Assembly: GCF_036588685.1 (NCBI RefSeq)
Contig: NC_086375.1
Span: 16,306,001 to 16,370,000, forward strand
Length of the DNA: 64,000 nt
Direction: 5' to 3'
Origin: Mytilus trossulus
Taxonomy: Eukaryota
This document shows positions 890 to 22,628 of the stretch, piece by piece. The notes below the pieces were generated by a model. That model was not told the origin of the DNA, searched no databases, and saw only the letters and a list, made by a program, of their open reading frames with translations. Position 1 is the first letter of the stretch. Each line of letters starts with the position of its first letter. The position numbers and the translations under genes were made by a program.

Positions 890-1998
890 CTGTCTCATTA
901 ATAAAACAAGATGTAGATTGACTTTTGTTTACCGTACTATCTTCTTTTTGTCTTATATCTCAAATCTTTAATACAAAGAAACGGAAAACTCAAATCCAAT
1001 ATGAAAAAACTATTTGCCATTTTCTAATTTAAAGTTATAGTGGGCGATTACAAACGAAGTCAAATTCGATGATTTCGGCAATGGCTTCAATGATGTTTTC
1101 GTGTTTTAGGCTGAAGAAAGCTTCAAACTCAGTAGAGTATTTTGAGGACTTTCTTTATTGCAACTTTATCAAAAATCATATGATAGAGGCAGAGAAAACT
1201 TCTTCAGTATGAGCTTCAGCTTTCGATTATTTCGGCAATGGCTTCGATGATGTTTTCGTATTTGATTCTGAGGGAAGCTTCAAAATCAGTAGAGTTTTTT
1301 TAAGACTTTATTGCAACTTTATCGAAAATCATTCGATAGAGGCAGAGAAAACTTCTTCAGTAAGAGATTCAAAATTTGAGAGTCCACTGTTAACCTTAAT
1401 TTAAAACTGGCGTGGATGTTTTGTGATAAAGATACCAAATAGTCAAATGCAAGCTTTATATAGTAAATCGGCCGATATGGCCTCTTCCATGTCTTGATGT
1501 TCAAGGGGAGACAAGTCTTAATAAATAATTCATAAAACATTTTCATTAATGGTACATACTCTTGCAAACGGTAAACATGTCTAAGGCATTTATCAATTTT
1601 TCCATTGCCTTTGCCAGCGATGTTAACCGTTACCGTTACCGTAAACATTCCATAAAAGGTTTACAGTAGCTCAACAAGTATGATGTATACTATGCAGTTT
1701 ACCGTTTCTTCTTATGCAAAGTTTACAACAACTTACACGATTTTAAATCACTGTCTGAATGTCCAACGGGATATTTGCTTCCAATTTATTTAAAGAGTTT
1801 CGGATAAGAAAGGAATTCAACAGACTGAGACAAAAAAAAACTGTATGCTGATATGGCAAACTGGAGTATAACAATAAAGGACGTTGTCAGGCCTACGTTC
1901 TTCAAGCGCAAACCAGTCCAAATAAAGGACGTTTTTTAACAGAGGATTCAAGCATAGAGGAGATGAGAGACTTAAACGTTTCGATTGTGTTTTCTTGG
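890..1998 (-). pseudogene. Diverged, rearranged relic(s) of the kinase repeat unit
   Basis: Fragments match the spacer (890-1000), the catalytic-loop region (1020-1050), the N-lobe twice (~1068-1230 and ~1230-1365), the TATA/upstream region (~1375-1870), the spacer again (1880-1920) and the C-terminus (~1935-1997), all with many substitutions and indels. Confidence 0.85.
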
Positions 1999-2991
1999 TG
2001 TTCAAGGGGAGACAAGTCTAAATAAATGCTTCCTTACATGATAAAATAGTACATTTTTGGAAATAGCTCCCCTTTTCATTAATGGTACCTACTCTTGCAA
2101 ACGGTTAACATTTCTAAGGCATTTTTCTTATATGTTTACCGTTGCCATAAACTTTTCCATAGCTTGTGACTGCGATGTTTACCGTAACCATACAAATTCT
2201 ATTAAAGGTTTACCGTAGCTCAACTAGTATAAGTATACTCTGCAGTTTACCGTTTCTTCGCACGCTGAAGGTTTACCACAACAAACAACGATATTAAATC
2301 ACTGTCTGAATGTTCAAGGGGATATTTGCTTCCAATTTATTCACTGAGTTTCGGATTAGAAATGAATTCCACAGAAGACAAAAAAAAAACTGTATGCTGA
2401 TACGGTAAACTGGACTATAAAGTATAATACTGGGTCCTTTTATTTTGGTATTGCATCTTTCTTTACCGAACCCTCATACAATTAGTTTACCTAGAAATAT
2501 CTTTGCTCTGAGCAGATAATATCAGCAACGTCATAGTGTTTGAGGAGAAGTTATCAGCGACCGTCACAAGACGTTGTCAGGCCTACGTTTGTCAAGCGCA
2601 AACCAGTTCAAAAGAGGGGGCGAATAGTGAAAGAACGAATACGAGAGTATAGGTGTTCAGCCGCTCGACGCAAGGTGAAGCTCTCTGGCTCGCGGCTGAT
2701 ATGTTTCCGATATCAATAGACAGAAACTCTGAAATCATTACCTATCAATATCCTTATCTTGTTTCTCAAACATTTAATACAAAGAAACGGGAAACTGAAA
2801 TGTTAAAGGATTGTTTGGTGATACGGTAAACTAGACTAAAAATAGTCTTAATCACTTAGCAGTGTCTCATTGATAAAACAAGAGGTATAAGATGTGCCAA
2901 TCCTTAAAGGAATGTAGACCAAACGTTAACATGTGTTTACCGTAACCGCATATCGTATTTGATCACGGTTTACCGTAACAACAGCTCAGAC

Positions 2992-3041
2992 AAAAAAAAA
3001 GGCATCCTTGAAATCACAACATATTGTGATTTCAAGGATGC
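2992..3041 (-). terminator. 18-bp perfect stem-loop plus U9 tract 12 nt downstream of the kinase stop (representative; present in each unit, damaged at copies 3, 5, 12, 22). Terminator function is unproven.
   Basis: GCATCCTTGAAATCACAA (3002-3019), loop CATA, TTGTGATTTCAAGGATGC (3024-3041). The A9 at 2992-3000 reads as a T-tract following the hairpin on the minus strand. Confidence 0.5.
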
Positions 3042-3053
3042 TTAATTATGTGT

Positions 3054-3791
3054 TTAAAACTGGCTCAAGGCAAGACGGACTGAGGTTGCATTAGCGCGTT
3101 TTTCAACAGAGGGTTCAAGCATAGAGGAGATGAGAGACTTTAACGTTTCGTTAGTGTTTTCTGGGAAAGAGAGGGTGTTGGAGATTTGAGATTGGACCAT
3201 AGAGGTAGCGTCACTATCGGAGAATGGGAAAGCTCCGAAGAGCATGACGTAGAGCATAACTCCCATACTCCACATATCGGCTTTCATGGCGTTGTGTTCC
3301 ATTCCCATAATAACTTCTGGGGCAGCGTATGGGAGGGTTCCACAAAATTCTTCAGATTCGGCAACAATATCGGACGACTTGGCAAATCCAAAGTCGGCCA
3401 ATTTGACACAACCATTAGACAACAAGACGTTTTCTAATTTAATGTCATTGTGGGCGATTCCAATTGAGTGGCAGTATTCGATTGCTTTGACAACCTGAGA
3501 GAAGAGAGAGAGGGTGGCTTCAACGGACATGAGACCGTTTTTCATTATGTATTCAAAGACATCTCCGAATTCAGCGAATTCCATCAAAACGAAGGCAAAT
3601 TCTTCGGCTTCGATGATTTCAATGGCTTCGACGATGTTTTCGTGTTTGAGGCTGAGAAAAGCTTCAAACTCAGTTGAGGTTTTGATGACTTTCTTTATTG
3701 CAACTTAACCGAATATTTCGCTAGAGGCAGAGAAAACTTCTTCAGTAAGAGCTACAACATTTGAGAGTCCACTGTTCATTAAAAATTCCAT
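3054..3791 (-). pseudogene. TSSK-like kinase copy 1, nonsense mutation K67*
   Basis: A single substitution at 3707 creates TAA (3705-3707) just before VAIK. The rest of the coding sequence matches the other copies. Confidence 0.85.
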
Positions 3792-4023
3792 TTTAAACTG
3801 GCGTGGATGTGATGTGATAAAAATACCAAATAGTGAAATGCAAGCCTTATATAGTAAATCGCCCGATATGGCCTCTTCCATGTCTTGATGTTCAAGGGGA
3901 GACAAGTCTAAATAAATGCTTCCTTACATGATAAAATAGTACATTTTTGGAAATAGCTCCCCTTTTCATTAATGGTACCTACTCTTGCAAACGGTTAACA
4001 TTTCTAAGGCATTTTTCTTATAT

Positions 4024-4866
4024 GTTTACCGTTGCCATAAACTTTTCCATAGCTTGTGACTGCGATGTTTACCGTAACCATACAAATTCTATTAAAGGTT
4101 TACCGTAGCTCAACTAGTATAAGTATACTCTGCAGTTTACCGTTTCTTCGCACGCTGAAGGTTTACCACAACAAACAACGATATTAAATCACTGTCTGAA
4201 TGTTCAAGGGGATATTTGCTTCCAATTTATTCACTGAGTTTCGGATTAGAAATGAATTCCACAGAAGACAAAAAAAAAACTGTATGCTGATACGGTAAAC
4301 TGGACTATAAAGTATAATACTGGGTCCTTTTATTTTGGTATTGCATCTTTCTTTACCGAACCCTCATACAATTAGTTTACCTAGAAATATCTTTGCTCTG
4401 AGCAGATAATATCAGCAACGTCATAGTGTTTGAGGAGAAGTTATCAGCGACCGTCACAAGACGTTGTCAGGCCTACGTTTGTCAAGCGCAAACCAGTTCA
4501 AAAGAGGGGGCGAATAGTGAAAGAACGAATACGAGAGTATAGGTGTTCAGCCGCTCGACGCAAGGTGAAGCTCTCTGGCTCGCGGCTGATATGTTTCCGA
4601 TATCAATAGACAGAAACTCTGAAATCATTACCTATCAATATCCTTATCTTGTTTCTCAAACATTTAATACAAAGAAACGGGAAACTGAAATGTTAAAGGA
4701 TTGTTTGGTGATACGGTAAACTAGACTAAAAATAGTCTTAATCACTTAGCAGTGTCTCATTGATAAAACAAGAGGTATAAGATGTGCCAATCCTTAAAGG
4801 AATGTAGACCAAACGTTAACATGTGTTTACCGTAACCGCATATCGTATTTGATCACGGTTTACCGT
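4024..4866. promoter_or_regulatory. Cluster of GTTTACCGT/ACGGTAAAC motifs in the spacer (representative unit)
   Basis: Exact copies at 4024, 4067, 4098, 4135, 4292(rc), 4713(rc), 4825 and 4858. Near-copies at 4161, 4351 and 4375. The regulatory role is inferred. Confidence 0.55.
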
Positions 4867-4943
4867 AACAACAGCTCAGACAAAAAAAAAGGCATCCTTG
4901 AAATCACAACATATTGTGATTTCAAGGATGCTTAATTATGTGT

Positions 4944-5681
4944 TTAAAACTGGCTCAAGGCAAGACGGACTGAGGTTGCATTAGCGCGTTTTTCAACAGA
5001 GGGTTCAAGCATAGAGGAGATGAGAGACTTTAACGTTTCGTTAGTGTTTTCTGGGAAAGAGAGGGTGTTGGAGATTTGAGATTGGACCATAGAGGTAGCG
5101 TCACTATCGGAGAATGGGAAAGCTCCGAAGAGCATGACGTAGAGCATAACTCCCATACTCCACATATCGGCTTTCATGGCGTTGTGTTCCATTCCCATAA
5201 TAACTTCTGGGGCAGCGTATGGGAGGGTTCCACAAAATTCTTCAGATTCGGCAACAATATCGGACGACTTGGCAAATCCAAAGTCGGCCAATTTGACACA
5301 ACCATTAGACAACAAGACGTTTTCTAATTTAATGTCATTGTGGGCGATTCCAATTGAGTGGCAGTATTCGATTGCTTTGACAACCTGAGAGAAGAGAGAG
5401 AGGGTGGCTTCAACGGACATGAGACCGTTTTTCATTATGTATTCAAAGACATCTCCGAATTCAGCGAATTCCATCAAAACGAAGGCAAATTCTTCGGCTT
5501 CGATGATTTCAATGGCTTCGACGATGTTTTCGTGTTTGAGGCTGAGAAAAGCTTCAAACTCAGTTGAGGTTTTGATGACTTTCTTTATTGCAACTTTACC
5601 GAATATTTCGCTAGAGGCAGAGAAAACTTCTTCAGTAAGAGCTACAACATTTGAGAGTCCACTGTTCATTAAAAATTCCAT
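4944..5681 (-). CDS. Intronless CAMK-group (TSSK-like) Ser/Thr protein kinase, copy 2, 245 aa
   Basis: Motifs VAIK, LKHENIV, MEFAEFGD, HNDIKLEN, DFG, FCGTLPYAAPE, DMWSMGV and subdomain XI Arg. The start is placed at TTTAAAATG (M39) downstream of the TATA box; the open frame extends upstream to ATG 5771 and TTG 5795. Confidence 0.9.
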   Translation of the reverse strand: MEFLMNSGLSNVVALTEEVFSASSEIFGKVAIKKVIKTSTEFEAFLSLKHENIVEAIEIIEAEEFAFVLMEFAEFGDVFEYIMKNGLMSVEATLSLFSQVVKAIEYCHSIGIAHNDIKLENVLLSNGCVKLADFGFAKSSDIVAESEEFCGTLPYAAPEVIMGMEHNAMKADMWSMGVMLYVMLFGAFPFSDSDATSMVQSQISNTLSFPENTNETLKSLISSMLEPSVEKRANATSVRLALSQF

Positions 5682-5735
5682 TTTAAACTGGCGTGGATGT
5701 GATGTGATAAAGATACCAAATAGTGAAATGCAAGC

Positions 5736-5743
5736 CTTATATA
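5736..5743 (-). promoter_or_regulatory. TATA box of the kinase gene (representative; present in copies 1-29)
   Basis: TATATAAG on the minus strand, 62 nt upstream of the M39 ATG. It is retained as TATATAAA in the diverged relic (~1454-1462). Confidence 0.65.
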
Positions 5744-6835
5744 GTAAATCGCCCGATATGGCCTCTTCCATGTCTTGATGTTCAAGGGGAGACAAGTCTA
5801 AATAAATGCTTCCTTACATGATAAAATAGTACATTTTTGGAAATAGCTCCCCTTTTCATTAATGGTACCTACTCTTGCAAACGGTTAACATTTCTAAGGC
5901 ATTTTTCTTATATGTTTACCGTTGCCATAAACTTTTCCATAGCTTGTGACTGCGATGTTTACCGTAACCATACAAATTCTATTAAAGGTTTACCGTAGCT
6001 CAACTAGTATAAGTATACTCTGCAGTTTACCGTTTCTTCGCACGCTGAAGGTTTACCACAACAAACAACGATATTAAATCACTGTCTGAATGTTCAAGGG
6101 GATATTTGCTTCCAATTTATTCAATGAGTTTCGGATTAGAAATGAATTCCACAGAAGACAAAAAAAAAAAACTGTATGCTGATACGGTAAACTGGACTAT
6201 AAAGTATAATACTGGGTCCTTTTATTTTGGTATTGCATCTTTCTTTACCGTACCCTCATACAATTAGTTTACCTAGAAATGTCTTTGCTCTGAGCAGATA
6301 ATATCAGCAACGTCATAGTGTTTGAGGAGAAGTTATCAGCGACCGTCACAAGACGTTGTCAGGCCTACGTTTGTCAAGCGCAAACCAGTTCAAAAGAGGG
6401 GGCGAATAGTGAAAGAACGAATACGAGAGTATAGGTGTTCAGCCGCTCGACGCAAGGTGAAGCTCTCTGGCTCGCGGCTGATATGTTTCCGATATCAATA
6501 GACAGAAACTCTGAAATCATTACCTATCAATATCCTTATCTTGTTTCTCAAACATTTAATACAAAGAAACGGGAAACTGAAATGTTAAAGGATTGTTTGG
6601 TGATACGGTAAACTAGACTAAAAATAGTATTAATCACTTAGCAGTGTCTCATTGATAAAACAAGAGGTATAAGACGTGCCAATCCTTAAAGGAATGTAGA
6701 CCAAACGTTAACATGTGTTTACCGTAACCGCATATCGTATTTGATCACGGTTTACCGTAACAACAGCTCAGACAAAAAAAAAGGCATCCTTGAAATAACA
6801 ACATATTGTGATTTCAAGGATGCTTAATTATGTGT

Positions 6836-7573
6836 TTAAAACTGGCTCAAGGCAAGACGGACTGAGGTTGCATTAGCGCGTTTTTCAACAGAGGGTTCAA
6901 GCATAGAGGAGATGAGAGACTTTAACGTTTCGTTAGTGTTTTCTGGGAAAGAGAGGGTGTTGGAGATTTGAGATTGGACCATAGAGGTAGCGTCACTATC
7001 GGAGAATGGGAAAGCTCCGAAGAGCATGACGTAGAGCATAACTCCCATACTCCACATATCGGCTTTCATGGCGTTGTGTTCCATTCCCATAATAACTTCT
7101 GGGGCAGCGTATGGGAGGGTTCCACAAAATTCTTCAGATTCGGCAACAATATCGGACGACTTGGCAAATCCAAAGTCGGCCAATTTGACACAACCATTAG
7201 ACAACAAGACGTTTTCTAATTTAATGTCATTGTGGGCGATTCCAATTGAGTGGCAGTATTCGATTGCTTTGACAACCTGAGAGAAGAGAGAGAGGGTGGC
7301 TTCAACGGACATGAGACCGTTTTTCATTATGTATTCAAAGACATCTCCGAATTCAGCGAATTCCATCAAAACGAAGGCAAATTCTTCGGCTTCGATGATT
7401 TCAATGGCTTCGACGATGTTTTCGTGTTTGAGGCTGAGAAAAGCTTCAAACTCAGTTGAGGTTTTGATGACTTTCTTTATTGCAACTTTACCGAATATTT
7501 CGCTAGAGGCAGAGAAAACTTCTTCAGTAAGAGCTACAACATTTGAGAGTCCACTGTTCATTAAAAATTCCAT
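6836..7573 (-). CDS. TSSK-like kinase copy 3
   Basis: Same protein as copy 2 (T274 type). Confidence 0.9.
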   Translation of the reverse strand: MEFLMNSGLSNVVALTEEVFSASSEIFGKVAIKKVIKTSTEFEAFLSLKHENIVEAIEIIEAEEFAFVLMEFAEFGDVFEYIMKNGLMSVEATLSLFSQVVKAIEYCHSIGIAHNDIKLENVLLSNGCVKLADFGFAKSSDIVAESEEFCGTLPYAAPEVIMGMEHNAMKADMWSMGVMLYVMLFGAFPFSDSDATSMVQSQISNTLSFPENTNETLKSLISSMLEPSVEKRANATSVRLALSQF

Positions 7574-8704
7574 TTTAAACTGGCGTGGATGTGATGTGAT
7601 AAAGATACCAAATAGTGAAATGCAAGCCTTATATAGTAAATCGCCCGATATGGCCTCTTCCATGTCTTGATGTTCAAGGGGAGACAAGTCTAAATAAATG
7701 CTTCCTTACATGATAAAATAGTACATTTTTGGAAATAGCTCCCCTTTTCATTAATGGTACCTACTCTTGCAAACGGTTAACATTTCTAAGGCATTTTTCT
7801 TATATGTTTACCGTTGCCATAAACTTTTCCATAGCTTGTGACTGCGATGTTTACCGTAACCATACAAATTCTATTAAAGGTTTACCGTAGCTCAACTAGT
7901 ATAAGTATACTCTGCAGTTTACCGTTTCTTCGCACGCTGAAGGTTTACCACAACAAACAACGATATTAAATCACTGTCTGAATGTTCAAGGGGATATTTG
8001 CTTCCAATTTATTCAATGAGTTTCGGATTAGAAATGAATTCCACAGAAGACAAAAAAAAAACTGTATGCTGATACGGTAAACTGGACTATAAAGTATAAT
8101 ACTGGGTCCTTTTATTTTGGTATTGCATCTTTCTTTACCGTACCCTCATACAATAAGTTTACCTAGAAATGTCTTTGCTCTGAGCAGATAATAAGGAGAA
8201 GTTATCAGCGACCGTCACAAGACGTTGTCAGGCCTACGTTTGTCAAGCGCAAACCAGTTCAAAAGAGGGGGCGAATAGTGAAAGAACGAATACGAGAGTA
8301 TAGGTGTTCAGCCGCTCGACGCAAGGTGAAGCTCTCTGGCTCGCGGCTGATATGTTTCCGATATCAATAGACAGAAACTCTGAAATCATTACCTATCAAT
8401 ATCCTTATCTTGTTTCTCAAACATTTAATACAAAGAAACGGGAAACTGAAATGTTAAAGGATTGTTTGGTGATACGGTAAACTAGACTAAAAATAGTATT
8501 AATCACTTAGAAGTGTCTCATTGATAAAACAAGAGGTATAAGATGTGCCAATCCTTAAAGGAATGTAGACCAAACGTTAACATGTGTTTACCGTAACCGC
8601 ATATCGTATTTGATCACGGTTTACCGTAACAACAGCTCAGACAAAAAAAAAGGCATCCTTGAAATCACAACATATTGTGATTTCAAGGATGCTTAATTAT
8701 GTGT

Positions 8705-9430
8705 TTAAAACTGGCTCAAGGCAAGACGGACTGAGGTTGCATTAGCGCGTTTTTCAACAGAGGGTTCAAGCATAGAGGAGATGAGAGACTTTAACGTTTC
8801 GTTAGTGTTTTCTGGGAAAGAGAGGGTGTTGGAGATTTGAGATTGGACCATAGAGGTAGCGTCACTATCGGAGAATGGGAAAGCTCCGAAGAGCATGACG
8901 TAGAGCATAACTCCCATACTCCACATATCGGCTTTCATGGCGTTGTGTTCCATTCCCATAATAACTTCTGGGGCAGCGTATGGGAGGGTTCCACAAAATT
9001 CTTCAGATTCGGCAACAATATCGGACGACTTGGCAAATCCAAAGTCGGCCAATTTGACACAACCATTAGACAACAAGACGTTTTCTAATTTAATGTCATT
9101 GTGGGCGATTCCAATTGAGTGGCAGTATTCGATTGCTTTGACAACCTGAGAGATGAGAGAGAGGGTGGCTTCAACGGACATGAGACCGTTTTTCATTATG
9201 TATTCAAAGACATCTCCGAATTCAGCGAATTCCATCAAAACGAAGGCAAATTCTTCGGCTTCGATGATTTCAATGGCTTCGACGATGTTTTCGTGTTTGA
9301 GGCTGAGAAAAGCTTCAAACTCAGTTGAGGTTTTGATGACTTTCTTTATTGCAACTTTACCGAATATTTCGCTAGAGGCAGAGAAAACTTCTTCAGTAAG
9401 AGCTACAACATTTGAGAGTCCACTGTTCAT
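8705..9430 (-). CDS. TSSK-like kinase copy 4 (M39 ATG>ATA, F135I)
   Basis: Intact frame. The presumed start is mutated, so the next ATG (M43) is used for the coordinates. Confidence 0.8.
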   Translation of the reverse strand: MNSGLSNVVALTEEVFSASSEIFGKVAIKKVIKTSTEFEAFLSLKHENIVEAIEIIEAEEFAFVLMEFAEFGDVFEYIMKNGLMSVEATLSLISQVVKAIEYCHSIGIAHNDIKLENVLLSNGCVKLADFGFAKSSDIVAESEEFCGTLPYAAPEVIMGMEHNAMKADMWSMGVMLYVMLFGAFPFSDSDATSMVQSQISNTLSFPENTNETLKSLISSMLEPSVEKRANATSVRLALSQF

Positions 9431-10578
9431 TAAAAATTCTATTTTAAACTGGCGTGGATGTGATGTGATAAAGATACCAAATAATGAAATGCAAGCCTTA
9501 TATAGTAAATCGCCCGATATGGCCTCTTCCATGTCTTGATGTTCAAGGGGAGACAAGTCTAAATAAATGCTTCCTTACATGATAAAATAGTACATTTTTG
9601 GAAATAGCTCCCCTTTTCATTAATGGTACCTACTCTTGCAAACGGTTAACATTTCTAAGGCATTTTTCTTATATGTTTACCGTTGCCATAAACTTTTCCA
9701 TAGCTTGTGACTGCGATGTTTACCGTAACCATACAAATTCTATTAAAGGTTTACCGTAGCTCAACTAGTATAAGTATACTCTGCAGTTTACCGTTTCTTC
9801 GCACGCTGAAGGTTTACCACAACAAACAACGATATTAAATCACTGTCTGAATGTTCAAGGGGATATTTGCTTCCAATTTATTCAATGAGTTTCGGATTAG
9901 AAATGAATTCCACAGAAGACAAAAAAAAACTGTATGCTGATACGGTAAACTGGACTATAAAGTATAATACTGGGTCCTTTTATTTTGGTATTGCATCTTT
10001 CTTTACCGTACCCTCATACAATTAGTTTACCTAGAAATGTCTTTGCTCTGAGCAGATAATATCAGCAACGTCATAGTGTTTGAGGAGAAGTTATCAGCGA
10101 CCGTCACAAGACGTTGTCAGGCCTACGTTTGTCAAGCGCAAACCAGTTCAAAAGAGGGGGCGAATAGTGAAAGAACGAATACGAGAGTATAGGTGTTCAG
10201 CCGCTCGACGCAAGGTGAAGCTCTCTGGCTCGCGGCTGATATGTTTCCGATATCAATAGACAGAAACTCTGAAATCATTACCTATCAATATCCTTATCTT
10301 GTTTCTCAAACATTTAATACAAAGAAACGGGAAACTGAAATGTTAAAGGATTGTTTGGTGATACGGTAAACTAGACTAAAAATAGTATTAATCACTTAGC
10401 AGTGTCTCATTGATAAAACAAGAGGTATAAGATGTGCCAATCCTTAAAGGAATGTAGACCAAACGTTAACATGTGTTTACCGTAACCGCATATCGTATTT
10501 GATCACGGTTTACCGTAACAACAGCTCAGACAAAAAAAAAGGCATCCTTGAAATCACAACATATTCTTAATTATGTGT

Positions 10579-11316
10579 TTAAAACTGGCTCAAGGCAAGA
10601 CGGACTGAGGTTGCATTAGCGCGTTTTTCAACAGAGGGTTCAAGCATAGAGGAGATGAGAGACTTTAACGTTTCGTTAGTGTTTTCTGGGAAAGAGAGGG
10701 TGTTGGAGATTTGAGATTGGACCATAGAGGTAGCGTCACTATCGGAGAATGGGAAAGCTCCGAAGAGCATGACGTAGAGCATAACTCCCATACTCCACAT
10801 ATCGGCTTTCATGGCGTTGTGTTCCATTCCCATAATAACTTCTGGGGCAGCGTATGGGAGGGTTCCACAAAATTCTTCAGATTCGGCAACAATATCGGAC
10901 GACTTGGCAAATCCAAAGTCGGCCAATTTGACACAACCATTAGACAACAAGACGTTTTCTAATTTAATGTCATTGTGGGCGATTCCAATTGAGTGGCAGT
11001 ATACGATTGCTTTGACAACCTGAGAGAAGAGAGAGAGGGTGGCTTCAACGGACATGAGACCGTTTTTCATTATGTATTCAAAGACATCTCCGAATTCAGC
11101 GAATTCCATCAAAACGAAGGCAAATTCTTCGGCTTCGATGATTTCAATGGCTTCGACGATGTTTTCGTGTTTGAGGCTGAGAAAAGCTTCAAACTCAGTT
11201 GAGGTTTTGATGACTTTCTTTATTGCAACTTTACCGAATATTTCGCTAGAGGCAGAGAAAACTTCTTCAGTAAGAGCTACAACATTTGAGAGTCCACTGT
11301 TCATTAAAAATTCCAT
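10579..11316 (-). CDS. TSSK-like kinase copy 5 (E143V; 3' hairpin arm deleted)
   Basis: Intact ORF, T274 type. Confidence 0.88.
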   Translation of the reverse strand: MEFLMNSGLSNVVALTEEVFSASSEIFGKVAIKKVIKTSTEFEAFLSLKHENIVEAIEIIEAEEFAFVLMEFAEFGDVFEYIMKNGLMSVEATLSLFSQVVKAIVYCHSIGIAHNDIKLENVLLSNGCVKLADFGFAKSSDIVAESEEFCGTLPYAAPEVIMGMEHNAMKADMWSMGVMLYVMLFGAFPFSDSDATSMVQSQISNTLSFPENTNETLKSLISSMLEPSVEKRANATSVRLALSQF

Positions 11317-12470
11317 TTTAAACTGGCGTGGATGTGATGTGATAAAGATACCAAATAGTGAAATGCAAGCCTTATATAGTAAATCGCCCGATATGGCCTC
11401 TTCCATGTCTTGATGTTCAAGGGGAGACAAGTCTAAATAAATGCTTCCTTACATGATTAAATAGTACATTTTTGGAAATAGCTCCCCTTTTCATTAATGG
11501 TACCTACTCTTGCAAACGGTTAACATTTCTAAGCCATTTTTCTTATATGTTTACCGTTGCCATAAACTTTTCCATAGCTTGTGACTGCGATGTTTACCGT
11601 AACCATACAAATTCTATTAAAGGTTTACCGTAGCTCAACTAGTATAAGTATACTCTGCAGTTTACCGTTTCTTCGCACGCTGAAGGTTTACCACAACAAA
11701 CAACGATATTAAATCACTGTCTGAATGTTCAAGGGGATATTTGCTTCCAATTTATTCAATGAGTTTCGGATTAGAAATGAATTCCACAGAAGACAAACAA
11801 AAAAACTGTATGCTGATACGGTAAACTGGACTATAAAGTATAATACTGGGTCCTTTTATTTTGGTATTGCATCTTTCTTTACCGTACCCTCATACAATTA
11901 GTTTACCTAGAAATGTCTTTGCTCTGAGCAGATAATATCAGCAACGTCATAGTGTTTGAGGAGAAGTTATCAGCGACCGTCACAAGACGTTGTCAGGCCT
12001 ACGTTTGTCAAGCGCAAACCAGTTCAAAAGAGGGGGCGAATAGTGAAAGAACGAATACGAGAGTATAGGTGTTCAGCCGCTCGACGCAAGGTGAAGCTCT
12101 CTGGCTCGCGGCTGATATGTTTCCGATATCAATAGACAGAAACTATGAAATCATTACCTATCAATATCCTTATCTTGTTTCTCAAACATTTAATACAAAG
12201 AAACGGGAAACTGAAATGTTAAAGGATTGTTTGGTGATACGGTAAACTAGACTAAAAATAGTCTTAATCACTTAGCAGTGTCTCATTGATAAAACAAGAG
12301 GTATAAGATGTGCCAATCCTTAAAGGAATGTAGACCAAACGTTAACATGTGTTTACCGTAACCGCATATCGTATTTGATCACGGTTTACCGTAACAACAG
12401 CTCAGACAAAAAAAAAAGGCATCCTTGAAATCACAACATATTGTGATTTCAAGGATGCTTAATTATGTGT

Positions 12471-13208
12471 TTAAAACTGGCTCAAGGCAAGACGGACTGA
12501 GCTTGCATTAGCGCGTTTTTCAACAGAGGGTTCAAGCATAGAGGAGATGAGAGACTTTAACGTTTCGTTAGTGTTTTCTGGGAAAGAGAGGGTGTTGGAG
12601 ATTTGAGATTGGACCATAGAGGTAGCGTCACTATCGGAGAATGGGAAAGCTCCGAAGAGCATGACGTAGAGCATAACTCCCATACTCCACATATCGGCTT
12701 TCATGGCGTTGTGTTCCATTCCCATAATAACTTCTGGGGCAGCGTATGGGAGGGTTCCACAAAATTCTTCAGATTCGGCAACAATATCGGACGACTTGGC
12801 AAATCCAAAGTCGGCCAATTTGACACAACCATTAGACAACAAGACGTTTTCTAATTTAATGTCATTGTGGGCGATTCCAATTGAGTGGCAGTATTCGATT
12901 GCTTTGACAACCTGAGAGAAGAGAGAGAGGGTGGCTTCAACGGACATGAGACCGTTTTTCATTATGTATTCAAAGACATCTCCGAATTCAGCGAATTCCA
13001 TCAAAACGAAGGCAAATTCTTCGGCTTCGATGAATTCAATGGCTTCGACGATGTTTTCGTGTTTGAGGCTGAGAAAAGCTTCAAACTCAGTTGAGGTTTT
13101 GATGACTTTCTTTATTGCAACTTTACCGAATATTTCGCTAGAGGCAGAGAAAACTTCTTCAGTAAGAGCTACAACATTTGAGAGTCCACTGTTCATTAAA
13201 AATTCCAT
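12471..13208 (-). CDS. TSSK-like kinase copy 6 (I97F)
   Basis: Intact ORF, S274 type. Confidence 0.9.
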   Translation of the reverse strand: MEFLMNSGLSNVVALTEEVFSASSEIFGKVAIKKVIKTSTEFEAFLSLKHENIVEAIEFIEAEEFAFVLMEFAEFGDVFEYIMKNGLMSVEATLSLFSQVVKAIEYCHSIGIAHNDIKLENVLLSNGCVKLADFGFAKSSDIVAESEEFCGTLPYAAPEVIMGMEHNAMKADMWSMGVMLYVMLFGAFPFSDSDATSMVQSQISNTLSFPENTNETLKSLISSMLEPSVEKRANASSVRLALSQF

Positions 13209-14361
13209 TTTAAACTGGCGTGGATGTGATGTGATAAAGATACCAAATAGTGAAATGCAAGCCTTATATAGTAAATCGCCCGATATGGCCTCTTCCATGT
13301 CTTGATGTTCAAGGGGAGACAAGTCTAAATAAATGCTTCCTTACATGATAAAATAGTACATTTTTGGAAATAGCTCCCCTTTTCATTAATGGTACCTACT
13401 CTTGCAAACGGTTAACATTTCTAAGGCATTTTTCTTATATGTTTACCGTTGCCATAAACTTTTCCATAGCTTGTGACTGCGATGTTTACCGTAACCATAC
13501 AAATTCTATTAAAGGTTTACCGTAGCTCAACTAGTATAAGTATACTCTGCAGTTTACCGTTTCTTCGCACGCTGAAGGTTTACCACAACAAACAACGATA
13601 TTAAATCACTGTCTGAATGTTCAAGGGGATATTTGCTTCCAATTTATTCAATGAGTTTCGGATTAGAAATGAATTCCACAGAAGACAAAAAAAAAAACTG
13701 TATGCTGATACGGTAAACTGGACTATAAAGTATAATACTGGGTCCTTTTATTTTGGTATTGCATCTTTCTTTACCGTACCCTCATACAATTAGTTTACCT
13801 AGAAATGTCTTTGCTCTGAGCAGATAATATCAGCAACGTCATAGTGTTTGAGGAGAAGTTATCAGCGACCGTCACAAGACGTTGTCAGGCCTACGTTTGT
13901 CAAGCGCAAACCAGTTCAAAAGAGGGGGCGAATAGTGAAAGAACGAATACGAGAGTATAGGTGTTCAGCCGCTCGACGCAAGGTGAAGCTCTCTGGCTCG
14001 CGGCTGATATGTTTCCGATATCAATAGACAGAAACTATGAAATCATTACCTATCAATATCCTTATCTTGTTTCTCAAACATTTAATACAAAGAAACGGGA
14101 AACTGAAATGTTAAAGGATTGTTTGGTGATACGGTAAACTAGACTAAAAATAGTCTTAATCACTTAGCAGTGTCTCATTGATAAAACAAGAGGTATAAGA
14201 TGTGCCAATCCTTAAAGGAATGTAGACCAAACGTTAACATGTGTTTACCGTAACCGCATATCGTATTTGATCACGGTTTACCGTAACAACAGCTCAGACA
14301 AAAAAAAAGGCATCCTTGAAATCACAACATATTGTGATTTCAAGGATGCTTAATTCTGTGT

Positions 14362-15099
14362 TTAAAACTGGCTCAAGGCAAGACGGACTGAGCTTGCATT
14401 AGCGCGTTTTTCAACAGAGGGTTCAAGCATAGAGGAGATGAGAGACTTTAACGTTTCGTTAGTGTTTTCTGGGAAAGAGAGGGTGTTGGAGATTTGAGAT
14501 TGGACCATAGAGGTAGCGTCACTATCGGAGAATGGGAAAGCTCCGAAGAGCATGACGTAGAGCATAACTCCCATACTCCACATATCGGCTTTCATGGCGT
14601 TGTGTTCCATTCCCATAATAACTTCTGGGGCAGCGTATGGGAGGGTTCCACAAAATTCTTCAGATTCGGCAACAATATCGGACGACTTGGCAAATCCAAA
14701 GTCGGCCAATTTGACACAACCATTAGACAACAAGACGTTTTCTAATTTAATGTCATTGTGGGCGATTCCAATTGAGTGGCAGTATTCGATTGCTTTGACA
14801 ACCTGAGAGAAGAGAGAGAGGGTGGCTTCAACGGACATGAGACCGTTTTTCATTATGTATTCAAAGACATCTCCGAATTCAGCGAATTCCATCAAAACGA
14901 AGGCAAATTCTTCGGCTTCGATGATTTCAATGGCTTCGACGATGTTTTCGTGTTTGAGGCTGAGAAAAGCTTCAAACTCAGTTGAGGTTTTGATGACTTT
15001 CTTTATTGCAACTTTACCGAATATTTCGCTAGAGGCAGAGAAAACTTCTTCAGTAAGAGCTACAACATTTGAGAGTCCACTGTTCATTAAAAATTCCAT
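14362..15099 (-). CDS. TSSK-like kinase copy 7
   Basis: Intact ORF, consensus S274 type. Confidence 0.9.
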   Translation of the reverse strand: MEFLMNSGLSNVVALTEEVFSASSEIFGKVAIKKVIKTSTEFEAFLSLKHENIVEAIEIIEAEEFAFVLMEFAEFGDVFEYIMKNGLMSVEATLSLFSQVVKAIEYCHSIGIAHNDIKLENVLLSNGCVKLADFGFAKSSDIVAESEEFCGTLPYAAPEVIMGMEHNAMKADMWSMGVMLYVMLFGAFPFSDSDATSMVQSQISNTLSFPENTNETLKSLISSMLEPSVEKRANASSVRLALSQF

Positions 15100-16252
15100 T
15101 TTAAACTGGCGTGGATGTGATGTGATAAAGATACCAAATAGTGAAATGCAAGCCTTATATAGTAAATCGCCCGATATGGCCTCTTCCATGTCTTGATGTT
15201 CAAGGGGAGACAAGTCTAAATAAATGCTTCCTTACATGATAAAATAGTACATTTTTGGAAATAGCTCCCCTTTTCATTAATGGTACCTACTCTTGCAAAC
15301 GGTTAACATTTCTAAGGCATTTTTCTTATATGTTTACCGTTGCCATAAACTTTTCCATAGCTTGTGACTGCGATGTTTACCGTAACCATACAAATTCTAT
15401 TAAAGGTTTACCGTAGCTCAACTAGTATAAGTATACTCTGCAGTTTACCGTTTCTTCGCACGCTGAAGGTTTACCACAACAAACAACGATATTAAATCAC
15501 TGTCTGAATGTTCAAGGGGATATTTGCTTCCAATTTATTCAATGAGTTTCGGATTAGAAATGAATTCCACAGAAGGCAAAAAAAAAACTGTATGCTGATA
15601 CGGTAAACTGGACTATAAAGTATAATACTGGGTCCTTTTATTTTGGTATTGCATCTTTCTTTACCGTACCCTCATACAATTAGTTTACCTAGAAATGTCT
15701 TTGCTCTGAGCAGATAATATCAGCAACGTCATAGTGTTTGAGGAGAAGTTATCAGCGACCGTCACAAGACGTTGTCAGGCCTACGTTTGTCAAGCGCAAA
15801 CCAGTTCAAAAGAGGGGGCGAATAGTGAAAGAACGAATACGAGAGTATAGGTGTTCAGCCGCTCGACGCAAGGTGAAGCTCTCTGGCTCGCGGCTGATAT
15901 GTTTCCGATATCAATAGACAGAAACTATGAAATCATTACCTATCAATATCCTTATCTTGTTTCTCAAACATTTAATACAAAGAAACGGGAAACTGAAATG
16001 TTAAAGGATTGTTTGGTGATACGGTAAACTAGACTAAAAATAGTCTTAATCACTTAGCAGTGTCTCATTGATAAAACAAGAGGTATAAGATGTGCCAATC
16101 CTTAAAGGAATGTAGACCAAACGTTAACATGTGTTTACCGTAACCGCATATCGTATTTGATCACGGTTTACCGTAACAACAGCTCAGACAAAAAAAAAAG
16201 GCATCCTTGAAATCACAACATATTGTGATTTCAAGGATGCTTAATTATGTGT

Positions 16253-16990
16253 TTAAAACTGGCTCAAGGCAAGACGGACTGAGCTTGCATTAGCGCGTTT
16301 TTCAACAGAGGGTTCAAGCATAGAGGAGATGAGAGACTTTAACGTTTCGTTAGTGTTTTCTGGGAAAGAGAGGGTGTTGGAGATTTGAGATTGGACCATA
16401 AAGGTAGCGTCACTATCGGAGAATGGGAAAGCTCCGAAGAGCATGACGTAGAGCATAACTCCCATACTCCACATATCGGCTTTCATGGCGTTGTGTTCCA
16501 TTCCCATAATAACTTCTGGGGCAGCGTATGGGAGGGTTCCACAAAATTCTTCAGATTCGGCAACAATATCGGACGACTTGGCAAATCCAAAGTCGGCCAA
16601 TTTGACACAACCATTAGACAACAAGACGTTTTCTAATTTAATGTCATTGTGGGCGATTCCAATTGAGTGGCAGTATTCGATTGCTTTGACAACCTGAGAG
16701 AAGAGAGAGAGGGTGGCTTCAACGGACATGAGACCGTTTTTCATTATGTATTCAAAGACATCTCCGAATTCAGCGAATTCCATCAAAACGAAGGCAAATT
16801 CTTCGGCTTCGATGATTTCAATGGCTTCGACGATGTTTTCGTGTTTGAGGCTGAGAAAAGCTTCAAACTCAGTTGAGGTTTTGATGACTTTCTTTATTGC
16901 AACTTTACCGAATATTTCGCTAGAGGCAGAGAAAACTTCTTCAGTAAGAGCTACAACATTTGAGAGTCCACTGTTCATTAAAAATTCCAT
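16253..16990 (-). CDS. TSSK-like kinase copy 8 (S235F)
   Basis: Intact ORF. Confidence 0.9.
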   Translation of the reverse strand: MEFLMNSGLSNVVALTEEVFSASSEIFGKVAIKKVIKTSTEFEAFLSLKHENIVEAIEIIEAEEFAFVLMEFAEFGDVFEYIMKNGLMSVEATLSLFSQVVKAIEYCHSIGIAHNDIKLENVLLSNGCVKLADFGFAKSSDIVAESEEFCGTLPYAAPEVIMGMEHNAMKADMWSMGVMLYVMLFGAFPFSDSDATFMVQSQISNTLSFPENTNETLKSLISSMLEPSVEKRANASSVRLALSQF

Positions 16991-18142
16991 TTTAAACTGG
17001 CGTGGATGTGATGTGATAAAGATACCAAATAGTGAAATGCAAGCCTTATATAGTAAATCGCCCGATATGGCCTCTTCCATGTCTTGATGTTCAAGGGGAG
17101 ACAAGTCTAAATAAATGCTTCCTTACATGATAAAATAGTACATTTTTGGAAATAGCTCCCCTTTTCATTAATGGTACCTACTCTTGCAAACGGTTAACAT
17201 TTCTAAGGCATTTTTCTTATATGTTTACCGTTGCCATAAACTTTTCCATAGCTTGTGACTGCGATGTTTACCGTAACCATACAAATTCTATTAAAGGTTT
17301 ACCGTAGCTCAACTAGTATAAGTATACTCTGCAGTTTATCGTTTCTTCGCACGCTGAAGGTTTACCACAACAAACAACGATATTAAATCACTGTCTGAAT
17401 GTTCAAGGGGATATTTGCTTCCAATTTATTCAATGAGTTTCGGATTAGAAATGAATTCCACAGAAGACAAAAAAAAAACTGTATGCTGATACGGTAAACT
17501 GGACTATAAAGTATAATACTGGGTCCTTTTATTTTGGTATTGCATCTTTCTTTACCGTACCCTCATACAATTAGTTTACCTAGAAATGTCTTTGCTCTGA
17601 GCAGATAATATCAGCAACGTCATAGTGTTTGAGGAGAAGTTATCAGCGACCGTCACAAGACGTTGTCAGGCCTACGTTTGTCAAGCGCAAACCAGTTCAA
17701 AAGAGGGGGCGAATAGTGAAAGAACGAATACGAGAGTATAGGTGTTCAGCCGCTCGACGCAAGGTGAAGCTCTCTGGCTCGCGGCTGATATGTTTCCGAT
17801 ATCAATAGACAGAAACTATGAAATCATTACCTATCAATATCCTTATCTTGTTTCTCAAACATTTAATACAAAGAAACGGGAAACTGAAATGTTAAAGGAT
17901 TGTTTGGTGATACGGTAAACTAGACTAAAAATAGTCTTAATCACTTAGCAGTGTCTCATTGATAAAACAAGAGGTATAAGATGTGCCAATCCTTAAAGGA
18001 ATGTAGACCAAACGTTAACATGTGTTTACCGTAACCGCATATCGTATTTGATCACGGTTTACCGTAACAACAGCTCAGACAAAAAAAAAGGCATCCTTGA
18101 AATCACAACATATTGTGATTTCAAGGATGCTTAATTATGTGT

Positions 18143-18880
18143 TTAAAACTGGCTCAAGGCAAGACGGACTGAGCTTGCATTAGCGCGTTTTTCAACAGAG
18201 GGTTCAAGCATAGAGGAGATGAGAGACTTTAACGTTTCGTTAGTGTTTTCTGGGAAAGAGAGGGTGTTGGAGATTTGAGATTGGACCATAGAGGTAGCGT
18301 CACTATCGGAGAATGGGAAAGCTCCGAAGAGCATGACGTAGAGCATAACTCCCATACTCCACATATCGGCTTTCATGGCGTTGTGTTCCATTCCCATAAT
18401 AACTTCTGGGGCAGCGTATGGGAGGGTTCCACAAAATTCTTCAGATTCGGCAACAATATCGGACGACTTGGCAAATCCAAAGTCGGCCAATTTGACACAA
18501 CCATTAGACAACAAGACGTTTTCTAATTTAATGTCATTGTGGGCGATTCCAATTGAGTGGCAGTATTCGATTGCTTTGACAACCTGAGAGAAGAGAGAGA
18601 GGGTGGCTTCAACGGACATGAGACCGTTTTTCATTATGTATTCAAAGACATCTCCGAATTCAGCGAATTCCATCAAAACGAAGGCAAATTCTTCGGCTTC
18701 GATGATTTCAATGGCTTCGACGATGTTTTCGTGTTTGAGGCTGAGAAAAGCTTCAAACTCAGTTGAGGTTTTGATGACTTTCTTTATTGCAACTTTACCG
18801 AATATTTCGCTAGAGGCAGAGAAAACTTCTTCAGTAAGAGCTACAACATTTGAGAGTCCACTGTTCATTAAAAATTCCAT
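18143..18880 (-). CDS. TSSK-like kinase copy 9
   Basis: Intact ORF, consensus. Confidence 0.9.
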   Translation of the reverse strand: MEFLMNSGLSNVVALTEEVFSASSEIFGKVAIKKVIKTSTEFEAFLSLKHENIVEAIEIIEAEEFAFVLMEFAEFGDVFEYIMKNGLMSVEATLSLFSQVVKAIEYCHSIGIAHNDIKLENVLLSNGCVKLADFGFAKSSDIVAESEEFCGTLPYAAPEVIMGMEHNAMKADMWSMGVMLYVMLFGAFPFSDSDATSMVQSQISNTLSFPENTNETLKSLISSMLEPSVEKRANASSVRLALSQF

Positions 18881-20032
18881 TTTAAACTGGCGTGGATGTG
18901 ATGTGATAAAGATACCAAATAGTGAAATGCAAGCCTTATATAGTAAATCGCCCGATATGGCCTCTTCCATGTCTTGATGTTCAAGGGGAGACAAGTCTAA
19001 ATAAATGCTTCCTTACATGATAAAATAGTACATTTTTGGAAATAGCTCCCCTTTTCATTAATGGTACCTACTCTTGCAAACGGTTAACATTTCTAAGGCA
19101 TTTTTCTTATATGTTTACCGTTGCCATAAACTTTTCCATAGCTTGTGACTGCGATGTTTACCGTAACCATACAAATTCTATTAAAGGTTTACCGTAGCTC
19201 AACTAGTATAAGTATACTCTGCAGTTTACCGTTTCTTCGCACGCTGAAGGTTTACCACAACAAACAACGATATTAAATCACTGTCTGAATGTTCAAGGGG
19301 ATATTTGCTTCCAATTTATTCAATGAGTTTCGGATTAGAAATGAATTCCACAGGAGACAAAACAAAAACTGTATGCTGATACGGTAAACTGGACTATAAA
19401 GTATAATACTGGGTCCTTTTATTTTGGTATTGCATCTTTCTTTACCGTACCCTCATACAATTAGTTTACCTAGAAATGTCTTTGCTCTGAGCAGATAATA
19501 TCAGCAACGTCATAGTGTTTGAGGAGAAGTTATCAGCGACCGTCACAAGACGTTGTCAGGCCTACGTTTGTCAAGCGCAAACCAGTTCAAAAGAGGGGGC
19601 GAATAGTGAAAGAACGAATACGAGAGTATAGGTGTTCAGCCGCTCGACGCAAGGTGAAGCTCTCTGGCTCGCGGCTGATATGTTTCCGATATCAATAGAC
19701 AGAAACTATGAAATCATTACCTATCAATATCCTTATCTTGTTTCTCAAACATTTAATACAAAGAAACGGGAAACTGAAATGTTAAAGGATTGTTTGGTGA
19801 TACGGTAAACTAGACTAAAAATAGTCTTAATCACTTAGCAGTGTCTCATTGATAAAACAAGAGGTATAAGATGTGCCAATCCTTAAAGGAATGTAGACCA
19901 AACGTTAACATGTGTTTACCGTAACCGCATATCGTATTTGATCACGGTTTACCGTAACAACAGCTCAGACAAAAAAAAAGGCATCCTTGAAATCACAACA
20001 TATTGTGATTTCAAGGATGCTTAATTATGTGT

Positions 20033-20770
20033 TTAAAACTGGCTCAAGGCAAGACGGACTGAGCTTGCATTAGCGCGTTTTTCAACAGAGGGTTCAAGCA
20101 TAGAGGAGATGAGAGACTTTAACGTTTCGTTAGTGTTTTCTGGGAAAGAGAGGGTGTTGGAGATTTGAGATTGGACCATAGAGGTAGCGTCACTATCGGA
20201 GAATGGGAAAGCTCCGAAGAGCATGACGTAGAGCATAACTCCCATACTCCACATATCGGCTTTCATGGCGTTGTGTTCCATTCCCATAATAACTTCTGGG
20301 GCAGCGTATGGGAGGGTTCCACAAAATTCTTCAGATTCGGCAACAATATCGGACGACTTGGCAAATCCAAAGTCGGCCAATTTGACACAACCATTAGACA
20401 ACAAGACGTTTTCTAATTTAATGTCATTGTGGGCGATTCCAATTGAGTGGCAGTATTCGATTGCTTTGACAACCTGAGAGAAGAGAGAGAGGGTGGCTTC
20501 AACGGACATGAGACCGTTTTTCATTATGTATTCAAAGACATCTCCGAATTCAGCGAATTCCATCAAAACGAAGGCAAATTCTTCGGCTTCGATGATTTCA
20601 ATGGCTTCGACGATGTTTTCGTGTTTGAGGCTGAGAAAAGCTTCAAACTCAGTTGAGGTTTTGATGACTTTCTTTATTGCAACTTTACCGAATATTTCGC
20701 TAGAGGCAGAGAAAACTTCTTCAGTAAGAGCTACAACATTTGAGAGTCCACTGTTCATTAAAAATTCCAT
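20033..20770 (-). CDS. TSSK-like kinase copy 10
   Basis: Intact ORF, consensus. Confidence 0.9.
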   Translation of the reverse strand: MEFLMNSGLSNVVALTEEVFSASSEIFGKVAIKKVIKTSTEFEAFLSLKHENIVEAIEIIEAEEFAFVLMEFAEFGDVFEYIMKNGLMSVEATLSLFSQVVKAIEYCHSIGIAHNDIKLENVLLSNGCVKLADFGFAKSSDIVAESEEFCGTLPYAAPEVIMGMEHNAMKADMWSMGVMLYVMLFGAFPFSDSDATSMVQSQISNTLSFPENTNETLKSLISSMLEPSVEKRANASSVRLALSQF

Positions 20771-21902
20771 TTTAAACTGGCGTGGATGTGATGTGATAAA
20801 GATACCAAATAGTGAAATGCAAGCCTTATATAGTAAATCGCCCGATATGGCCTCTTCCATGTCTTGATGTTCAAGGGGAGACAAGTCTAAATAAATGCTT
20901 CCTTACATGATAAAATAGTACATTTTTGGAAATAGCTCCCCTTTTCATTAATGGTACCTACTCTTGCAAACGGTTAACATTTCTAAGGCATTTTTCTTAT
21001 ATGTTTACCGTTGCCATAAACTTTTCCATAGCTTGTGACTGCGATGTTTACCGTAACCATACAAATTCTATTAAAGGTTTACCGTAGCTCAACTAGTATA
21101 AGTATACTCTGCAGTTTACCGTTTCTTCGCACGCTGAAGGTTTACCACAACAAACAACGATATTAAATCACTGTCTGAATGTTCAAGGGGATATTTGCTT
21201 CCAATTTATTCAATGAGTTTCGGATTAGAAATGAATTCCACAGAAGACAAACAAAAAAACTGTATGCTGATACGGTAAACTGGACTATAAAGTATAATAC
21301 TGGGTCCTTTTATTTTGGTATTGCATCTTTCTTTACCGTACCCTCATACAATTAGTTTACCTAGAAATGTCTTTGCTCTGAGCAGATAATAAGGAGAAGT
21401 TATCAGCGACCGTCACAAGACGTTGTCAGGCCTACGTTTGTCAAGCGCAAACCAGTTCAAAAGAGGGGGCGAATAGTGAAAGAACGAATACGAGAGTATA
21501 GGTGTTCAGCCGCTCGACGCAAGGTGAAGCTCTCTGGCTCGCGGCTGATATGTTTCCGATATCAATAGACAGAAACTCTGAAATCATTACCTATCAATAT
21601 CCTTATCTTGTTTCTCAAACATTTAATACAAAGAAACGGGAAACTGAAATGTTAAAGGATTGTTTGGTGATACGGTAAACTAGACTAAAAATAGTATTAA
21701 TCACTTAGAAGTGTCTCATTGATAAAACAAGAGGTATAAGATGTGCCAATCCTTAAAGGAATGTAGACCAAACGTTAACATGTGTTTACCGTAACCGCAT
21801 ATCGTATTTGATCACGGTTTACCGTAACAACAGCTCAGACAAAAAAAAAGGCATCCTTGAAATCACAACATATTGTGATTTCAAGGATGCTTAATTATGT
21901 GT

Positions 21903-22628
21903 TTAAAACTGGCTCAAGGCAAGACGGACTGAGGTTGCATTAGCGCGTTTTTCAACAGAGGGTTCAAGCATAGAGGAGATGAGAGACTTTAACGTTTCGT
22001 TAGTGTTTTCTGGGAAAGAGAGGGTGTTGGAGATTTGAGATTGGACCATAGAGGTAGCGTCACTATCGGAGAATGGGAAAGCTCCGAAGAGCATGACGTA
22101 GAGCATAACTCCCATACTCCACATATCGGCTTTCATGGCGTTGTGTTCCATTCCCATAATAACTTCTGGGGCAGCGTATGGGAGGGTTCCACAAAATTCT
22201 TCAGATTCGGCAACAATATCGGACGACTTGGCAAATCCAAAGTCGGCCAATTTGACACAACCATTAGACAACAAGACGTTTTCTAATTTAATGTCATTGT
22301 GGGCGATTCCAATTGAGTGGCAGTATTCGATTGCTTTGACAACCTGAGAGATGAGAGAGAGGGTGGCTTCAACGGACATGAGACCGTTTTTCATTATGTA
22401 TTCAAAGACATCTCCGAATTCAGCGAATTCCATCAAAACGAAGGCAAATTCTTCGGCTTCGATGATTTCAATGGCTTCGACGATGTTTTCGTGTTTGAGG
22501 CTGAGAAAAGCTTCAAACTCAGTTGAGGTTTTGATGACTTTCTTTATTGCAACTTTACCGAATATTTCGCTAGAGGCAGAGAAAACTTCTTCAGTAAGAG
22601 CTACAACATTTGAGAGTCCACTGTTCAT
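21903..22628 (-). CDS. TSSK-like kinase copy 11 (M39 ATG>ATA, F135I; same as copy 4)
   Basis: Intact frame; the next ATG (M43) is used for the coordinates. Confidence 0.8.
   Translation of the reverse strand: MNSGLSNVVALTEEVFSASSEIFGKVAIKKVIKTSTEFEAFLSLKHENIVEAIEIIEAEEFAFVLMEFAEFGDVFEYIMKNGLMSVEATLSLISQVVKAIEYCHSIGIAHNDIKLENVLLSNGCVKLADFGFAKSSDIVAESEEFCGTLPYAAPEVIMGMEHNAMKADMWSMGVMLYVMLFGAFPFSDSDATSMVQSQISNTLSFPENTNETLKSLISSMLEPSVEKRANATSVRLALSQF

Follow-up and report, generated by a model that had tools for sequence, protein, structure and literature searches.

Yeast RNA polymerase I (Pol I) stops 15 bp before bound Reb1 or Nsi1, and its release requires an RNA hairpin upstream of a T-rich stretch; release is fast when the polymerase has stopped 8 bp past the hairpin (Nielsen and Zenkin, PMC12366685). 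For Pol II, ends have been mapped 12 bp before a Reb1 site, with roadblocks defined within 5-25 bp (Roy et al., PMC5052057). Pol II can also terminate at T-tracts. In human, this happens mostly at most 1 kb from the start and behind short genes, and the RNAs are exosome substrates, not mRNAs (Davidson et al., PMC11610936). At some T-tracts, yeast Pol II can terminate without a hairpin (Han et al., PMC7615648); the same paper also cites work in which the enzyme fails at lambda or Pol III terminators lacking a hairpin. Pol II T-tract termination and Pol I hairpin-plus-roadblock termination are both recent findings from yeast and human, and for Pol II the outcome is mostly RNA disposal. A conserved, dedicated terminator behind an animal protein-coding gene would be unusual, and it would mean that such a mechanism can define the end of a gene.

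Here we describe a candidate of this kind in the mussel Mytilus trossulus. The terminator reading follows a lead given in a review (PMC13675443). Literature searches, covering titles, the starts of abstracts and few subscription journals, found no paper on the array or the element.

A three-part element behind the kinase genes

The window, by which we mean the whole 64,000-nucleotide stretch of contig NC_086375.1 (C3) analysed here, holds a tandem array of 30 units of approximately 1.89 kb (1993..58907, minus strand), each with one intronless kinase gene on the minus strand. Sister arrays of the same genome lie on contigs C4 (12 copies, 97% protein identity) and C1 (16 copies, 90%), which makes 58 copies in all, located in contigs of 94-113 Mb. 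The window units are 98.4-99.9% identical to a reference unit, so their 30 hairpins count as one observation, not 30. The C1 array is the most diverged: 20 of 101 four-fold (silent) sites differ from C3, and the mid-spacers, which differ at about half of the aligned positions, are probably unalignable. Three kinds of island survive this divergence: hairpin plus T-run, ACGGTAAAC motifs, and promoter.

A hairpin, a T-run and a downstream motif, conserved in their order and spacing, follow the stop codon. In copy 1, read on the minus strand, TAA (3054-3056) is followed by 12 nt, a stem-loop with a perfect 18-bp stem and a 4-nt loop (3002..3041; -26.9 kcal/mol), a C and T9 (2992..3000); the hairpin of the last copy lies at 58380-58419. 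The first-pass annotation had placed such a hairpin and T-run past every stop. Its structure is as described, and the T-run (T8-11, starting 0-1 nt past the stem) is present in 30/30 window copies, but "every" is too wide for the perfect stem, which 26 of the 30 copies have: copy 3 carries one mismatch, and copies 5, 12 and 22, rightly listed there as hairpin-deleted, have all lost the 5' arm. Copies 5 and 12 share one deletion spread by block duplication, which leaves two deletion events in the window. Together with one C4 copy, these give the array its own controls, four natural copies without a working hairpin, some of them with diagnostic coding changes.

The hairpin is beyond chance expectation. 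Its stem has only 39% G+C. Perfect stems reach at most 15 bp in 108,750 bases of the genome outside the arrays (with 17 stems of at least 10 bp) and at most 10 bp in 60 Markov resamples of the unit. For the 297 nt past the stop, the folding z is -5.6, and 0/200 shuffles are equally stable. The T-run lies approximately 850 nt from the TATA box and is the sole run of at least six T common to all three unit types; a second run of T9-11, with no hairpin, occurs in the C3 and C4 spacers and is absent from C1.

The third part, GTTACGGTAAAC, is new relative to the hairpin and T-run of the earlier annotation. It starts exactly 12 nt past the T-run in 58/58 copies and 20-23 nt from the base of the stem (copy 1: spacer 2980..2991, motif 2968..2979, minus strand). 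The length of the spacer is invariant while its sequence differs between C3/C4 and C1. We regard this motif as a putative protein-binding (roadblock) site. A second motif in the same orientation follows (2935..2946, minus strand) at a gap of 21, 47 or 51 nt from the first. The motif recurs upstream of the TATA box, where a cluster of four ACGGTAAAC motifs (4023..4148, minus strand), oriented as the downstream pair, is kept in C1. Further ACGGTAAAC positions, at 4290-4300, 4710-4720 and 4825-4869, are kept in diverged spacers. Per unit, the 9-mer core with at most one mismatch occurs 7 times in sense and 1-4 times in antisense orientation, against 0.25 expected, and ACGGTAAAC 8-11 times.

Genome-wide, the 12-mer has 331 matches, against 256 for the reversed control, and most lie within the arrays; we therefore reject the motif as a genome-wide element. 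Paired motifs occur at 166 places, 98 of the first 100 listed being in arrays; among the places listed, they are nearly confined to arrays. The motif is also not a terminator site borrowed from the rDNA, since ACGGTAAAC with at most one mismatch is missing from the spacer in 2/2 rDNA units of this genome that were compared, where one weak one-mismatch match falls within the rRNA region. It is likewise absent from two histone H1 loci. The rDNA spacer has subrepeats of approximately 107 bp that contain a palindrome with CGGTAAA, seven letters of the array motif; we take this weak likeness as no evidence.

Conservation of the stem

Among the refuting outcomes named in the first-pass annotation was a stem that is not conserved in related species. 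This outcome is not seen: C1 and C4 keep stem and T-run, as do contigs of three other organism labels, while the loop changes. In C4, 11/12 copies have the same hairpin and one has a central 19-nt deletion. In C1, the stem is present in 16/16 copies as a 22-bp form that contains three G.U pairs and has a longer apex (58 nt in total), followed by T9-11, a paired T included. Both arms are retained in 54/58 copies, while the 3' arm, T8-11, the 12 nt and the motif are retained in 58/58. In the contigs of other organism labels, there is no stem substitution among the differences listed, and the loop is shorter by 2 nt. That stem and T-run are kept while the loop changes makes a selected element likely.

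Between C3 and C1, 2/36 stem positions differ, against 20/101 four-fold sites (binomial P 0.017, Fisher P 0.034) and 35/245 of all third positions (P 0.095). Both changes are G.U-compatible on the mRNA strand, and the loop differs freely. Sequence has diverged on either side, both in the 9-12 nt that separate the stop from the stem and in the 12 nt past the T-run, so the conservation of the stem is not carried over from the gene. The stem is also a deletion hotspot: in 52 whole units (28 + 10 + 14; one 659-nt insertion excluded), it holds 3/11 distinct indels of at least 3 nt, against 0.36 expected (P 0.005, or 0.008 for the spacer only). A fragile stem that changes slowly and carries a free loop points to selection on the folded structure. 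The C1 stem has three pairs that are not Watson-Crick, and read on the mRNA strand all of them are G.U (chance 1 in 8); this stem folds to -39.0 kcal/mol in sense and -29.8 kcal/mol in antisense. The hairpin is thus likely, as judged from these alignments, to be under selection as a folded structure, more likely in RNA, and the DNA cruciform that had been suggested for it is weakened by the three G.U pairs. The compensatory stem changes looked for between units did not turn up: 0/18 pairs changed on both sides in a three-row alignment of two hairpin types (with a gap at the terminal pair), a comparison that spans unit types down to 90% protein identity.

A possible terminator and its alternatives

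We tentatively propose that hairpin, T-run and GTTACGGTAAAC together form a polyA-signal-independent Pol II terminator that keeps the 1.9-kb units apart, a reading to which we give slightly less than an even chance. It has this strength because of the 12-nt spacing and the Pol I and Pol II papers, and Pol II is named because the gene has a TATA box and a reading frame. A protein bound at GTTACGGTAAAC would stall Pol II within the T-run and 7-10 nt past the stem, the place where the 3' end falls if the 15-bp and 12-bp stop offsets of Pol I and Pol II are applied here. Release of the RNA, with no polyA signal, would be due to the hairpin together with the weak U:A hybrid; the hairpin at the RNA 3' end could shield it against 3' exonucleases; and the module would block read-through into the next promoter, approximately 0.7-1 kb downstream. 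We infer that a protein binds the motif, that the polymerase stops there and that the released RNA is a working mRNA.

Non-canonical 3'-end formation had been among the first readings of the hairpin. The conserved downstream motif at its fixed spacing speaks for it, and the absence of compensatory pairs speaks against it. We count for the terminator that the distance from T-run to motif is fixed at 12 nt in 58/58 copies while the gap between the two motifs ranges over 21-51 nt, together with the low divergence of the stem, the G.U bias of its C1 form, its persistence in spite of deletions, and the position of the T-run less than 1 kb from the TATA box. Against the terminator count assembled contigs that bridge it (see below), the 0/18 compensatory pairs, a polyA hexamer 228-300 nt past the stop in each unit type, the degradation of T-tract-terminated Pol II RNAs in human cells, and the ability of yeast Pol II to use T-tracts with no hairpin. 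The copies with no hairpin also still have open frames. Since the motif also has four copies upstream of the promoter and 1-4 in reverse orientation, its role may be no more than that of an enhancer or insulator site. It is tempting to go further and suppose that a working mRNA is made by hairpin-assisted release of Pol II at a T-run before a family-specific roadblock, with neither cleavage and polyadenylation nor histone-type processing, which would be a third route to an animal mRNA 3' end, built like an rDNA terminator; we hold this larger claim to be possible but doubtful.

Among described systems, the Pol I terminator (hairpin, T-rich element and a Reb1, Nsi1 or TTF1 roadblock) is the nearest in layout. 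It shares with the mussel element the order of the three parts and the tandem units, the repeated sites in one orientation, and a long stem whose base abuts T-rich DNA (PMC12366685), and its layout of hairpin, T-rich stretch and putative factor site in fixed orientation is present in the mussel arrays. It differs in that the mussel gene is protein-coding with a TATA box and that the motif is not in the rDNA spacer of the same genome; the distance from hairpin to site is 20-23 nt in the arrays versus approximately 35 in yeast rDNA (PMC12366685). Bacterial intrinsic terminators likewise have a U-run directly past the stem (here U8-11 after 0-1 nt; the criterion is 7-8 or more U), whereas the mussel element belongs to an animal nuclear gene, has a longer stem (18-22 bp) of low G+C and an additional conserved downstream motif. 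Bacterial RNA polymerase is rejected as the reader: the arrays lie in very long contigs, the closest named proteins come from Mytilus and prokaryotic matches are remote. If the proposal holds, the mussel element acts like a Pol I or a bacterial terminator and is a member of neither class.

With Pol II T-tract termination (PMC11610936, PMC7615648), the element shares a T-run at most approximately 1 kb from the start of a short single-exon gene, and with the Reb1 roadblock of yeast Pol II a site at roadblock distance (PMC5052057). The products of these systems are mostly degraded and no conserved hairpin is needed (PMC11610936, PMC7615648, PMC5052057), whereas the mussel T-run is tied to a conserved stem and precedes all polyA hexamers. 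A Pol III signal, which would require a transcript free of internal runs of 4-5 or more T, is rejected, the reading frame having T5-T6 in its first 12 nt (C3, C4) or T5 at 233 (C1).

The comparisons with histone and Mimivirus 3' ends made in the earlier annotation fail on defining features. Histone genes resemble the mussel genes in being intronless and tandem, with a TATA box and a stem-loop soon after the stop. Yet the H1 gene of the same genome has a 6-bp stem, a 4-nt loop and an ACCA tail, and the kinase element differs in size, in sequence and in the T's after it, so that a histone 3' stem-loop is rejected. Rfam is no test for this, as it also missed the H1 stem-loop of this genome at the gathering score. 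Its best match to the kinase element is a plastid 3' UTR hairpin (31.8 bits; gathering score 48.5), which we take as a likeness of shape only. The Mimivirus rule likewise places a long hairpin past the stop, but its signal needs viral RNase III-like and polyA enzymes and is not conserved in sequence (PMC4402537), unlike the mussel element; a Mimivirus polyadenylation signal is rejected, the kinase having no close viral relative (best 37% identity).

The strongest alternative, which we consider somewhat unlikely, makes hairpin and U-run an element within the 3' UTR of a longer mRNA that is polyadenylated. A double-stranded RNA-binding protein and a U-rich binder would control its storage, translation or decay; the motifs would be promoter or enhancer sites, their spacing incidental. 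The G.U pairs that favour the RNA strand suit this reading as well. The polyA signals reported further downstream are present, ATTAAA at 2773..2778 (minus strand, 276 nt past the stop), in a part of the spacer unalignable with C1, and AATAAA at 2439-2444 (minus strand). The corresponding hexamers lie at +228 in C1 (AATAAA, then a TG/T-rich stretch), +276 in C3 and +300 in C4, every one of them downstream of the T-run. These hexamers are in unaligned sequence, and we estimate that approximately one per 300 nt of AT-rich DNA is expected by chance. The 3' UTR reading also leaves the fixed 12 nt between T-run and motif unexplained, and the motif otherwise behaves as a DNA site. If it were true, the finding would be modest, a new regulatory element in a multicopy kinase family not described so far.

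RNA runs, and runs presumed to be RNA, were also compared with the element. Raw RNA reads (91 placed, from four runs of another organism label, covering 6-19% of each run) give no depth at 2870-3154 in 4/4 runs, and the gene is barely covered, so we draw no conclusion from them. Most of the 91 lie, all with loose ends, on a 40-nt fragment of a widespread repeat, which is found at 2520-2561 and in each unit of the C3 and C4 spacers. Contigs of 4/4 runs, whose RNA nature is a guess only, span hairpin and T-run and continue across the joint into the next unit. Their continuation through the element would favour the 3' UTR reading: the bridging contigs are read-through if they are RNA, and uninformative if they are DNA carry-over of a 58-copy repeat.

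It is unlikely that the hairpin acts as DNA or not at all, whether as a self-correcting palindrome (by template switching), a cruciform or two protein sites in inverted orientation, or as what remains of the end of a rolling-circle or foldback transposon that homogenisation of the array has spread. Ordinary DNA of this genome does hold perfect stems of up to 15 bp, the stem is prone to deletion as palindromes are, no pair shows compensatory change, and the hairpin-less second T-run of the C3 and C4 spacers fits too. Self-correction, however, keeps the arms complementary and would not, as we see it, hold their divergence below the silent rate. As to transposons, Helentrons terminate in a stem-loop plus T's (PMC4067079; PMC8268682 adds little), with 11-15 bp subterminal inverted repeats and a 5-10 bp 3' palindrome as hallmark (PMC4067079), and the mussel stem is 18-22 bp. 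There are inverted ACGGTAAAC copies in the spacer, none of which brackets a unit ending at the T-run. A Helentron or HINE end is rejected: the searches, which are lower bounds, found no dispersed copies, and the hairpin is confined to the three arrays. The 10 non-array 13-mer arm matches on C1-C3, among the first 100 of 146 places listed, are unpaired singles. The outer array ends lie at unit positions 263 and 1800 (C3), 677 and 634 (C4) and 67 and 1308 (C1), so that 0/6 fall at the T-run (792-813).

Cutting of the hairpin by an RNase III enzyme of the Drosha or Dicer type, to yield a small RNA or to set off 3'-end formation by cleavage, is very improbable: the 58-nt C1 form with 22-nt arms has pre-miRNA size (16 copies), the arm sequence itself is conserved and RNase III-triggered termination is reported from yeasts (PMC8421224, PMC5052057), but the hairpin is only approximately 40 nt in 42/58 copies (C3/C4) and in the other organisms' contigs, the basal stem is weak, with no long extension, and Rfam miRNA matches are far below the gathering score (23.9 of 95 and 19.7 of 100 bits).

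The kinase gene and its array

The gene in front of the element has 245 codons and no intron; copy 1 (3054..3791, minus strand) has a premature stop and copy 2 (4944-5681, minus strand) is intact. A TATATAAGG box, the TATA box (3845..3853, minus strand), lies 62-63 nt upstream of the conserved second ATG in all three unit types. The 275-residue database form begins at an ATG upstream of the TATA box (window 5682-5771, minus strand), and this ATG is absent from C1. The position of the TATA box and the missing first ATG point to the 245-residue form as the likely protein, and more homologues have 245 residues than any other length.

The closest named proteins come from Mytilus species, where they are labelled TSSK or TSSK3-like, the latter an automatic label. 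Homologues of other species include ones that are 69-82% identical. Prokaryotic matches are distant, and the best viral match is at the level of any kinase. With the family alignment as query, metagenome, prokaryotic and viral contigs gave only distant kinases (for the metagenome, among the matches listed). In 16/16 family members, H[NSCG]D replaces HRD, Glu replaces the activation-loop Thr and there is no GxGxx (Gly-rich loop), while the VAIK-type Lys region, DFG and APE are retained. Two single-copy TSSK paralogues of the same genome have the Gly-rich loop, HRD and the activation-loop Thr. A canonical TSSK identity is therefore rejected, as the Gly-rich loop, the HRD Arg and the activation-loop Thr are missing in all 16 members examined, and the kinase is likely to be phosphorylation-independent. 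In a tree of 37 rows, from which partial and mis-called Mytilus proteins were excluded, the family falls outside the TSSK group as a clade on a long branch, for which support is weak (87/89). None of four single-copy kinase paralogues has the hairpin within 150 nt past its stop.

Several minor observations concern the arrays and their surroundings. Copies 4-5 (8705-11316) and 11-12 (21903-24514) have diagnostic coding changes and deletions in common and represent a block duplication within the array. Copy 21 lacks 18 nt in frame, copy 30 is truncated at its 5' end near 58907, and degenerate unit remnants lie at approximately 950-2000 of the window. On contig C1, a large tandem array at 4.76-5.18 Mb has histone H1 genes interleaved with 5S rRNA genes (149 of the 150 H1 matches listed). 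A 656-nt insertion at 55606-56261, with 18-bp terminal inverted repeats (16/18 match) and a TTA duplication, disrupts the ATTAAA of copy 29; we take it to be PIF/Harbinger-like.
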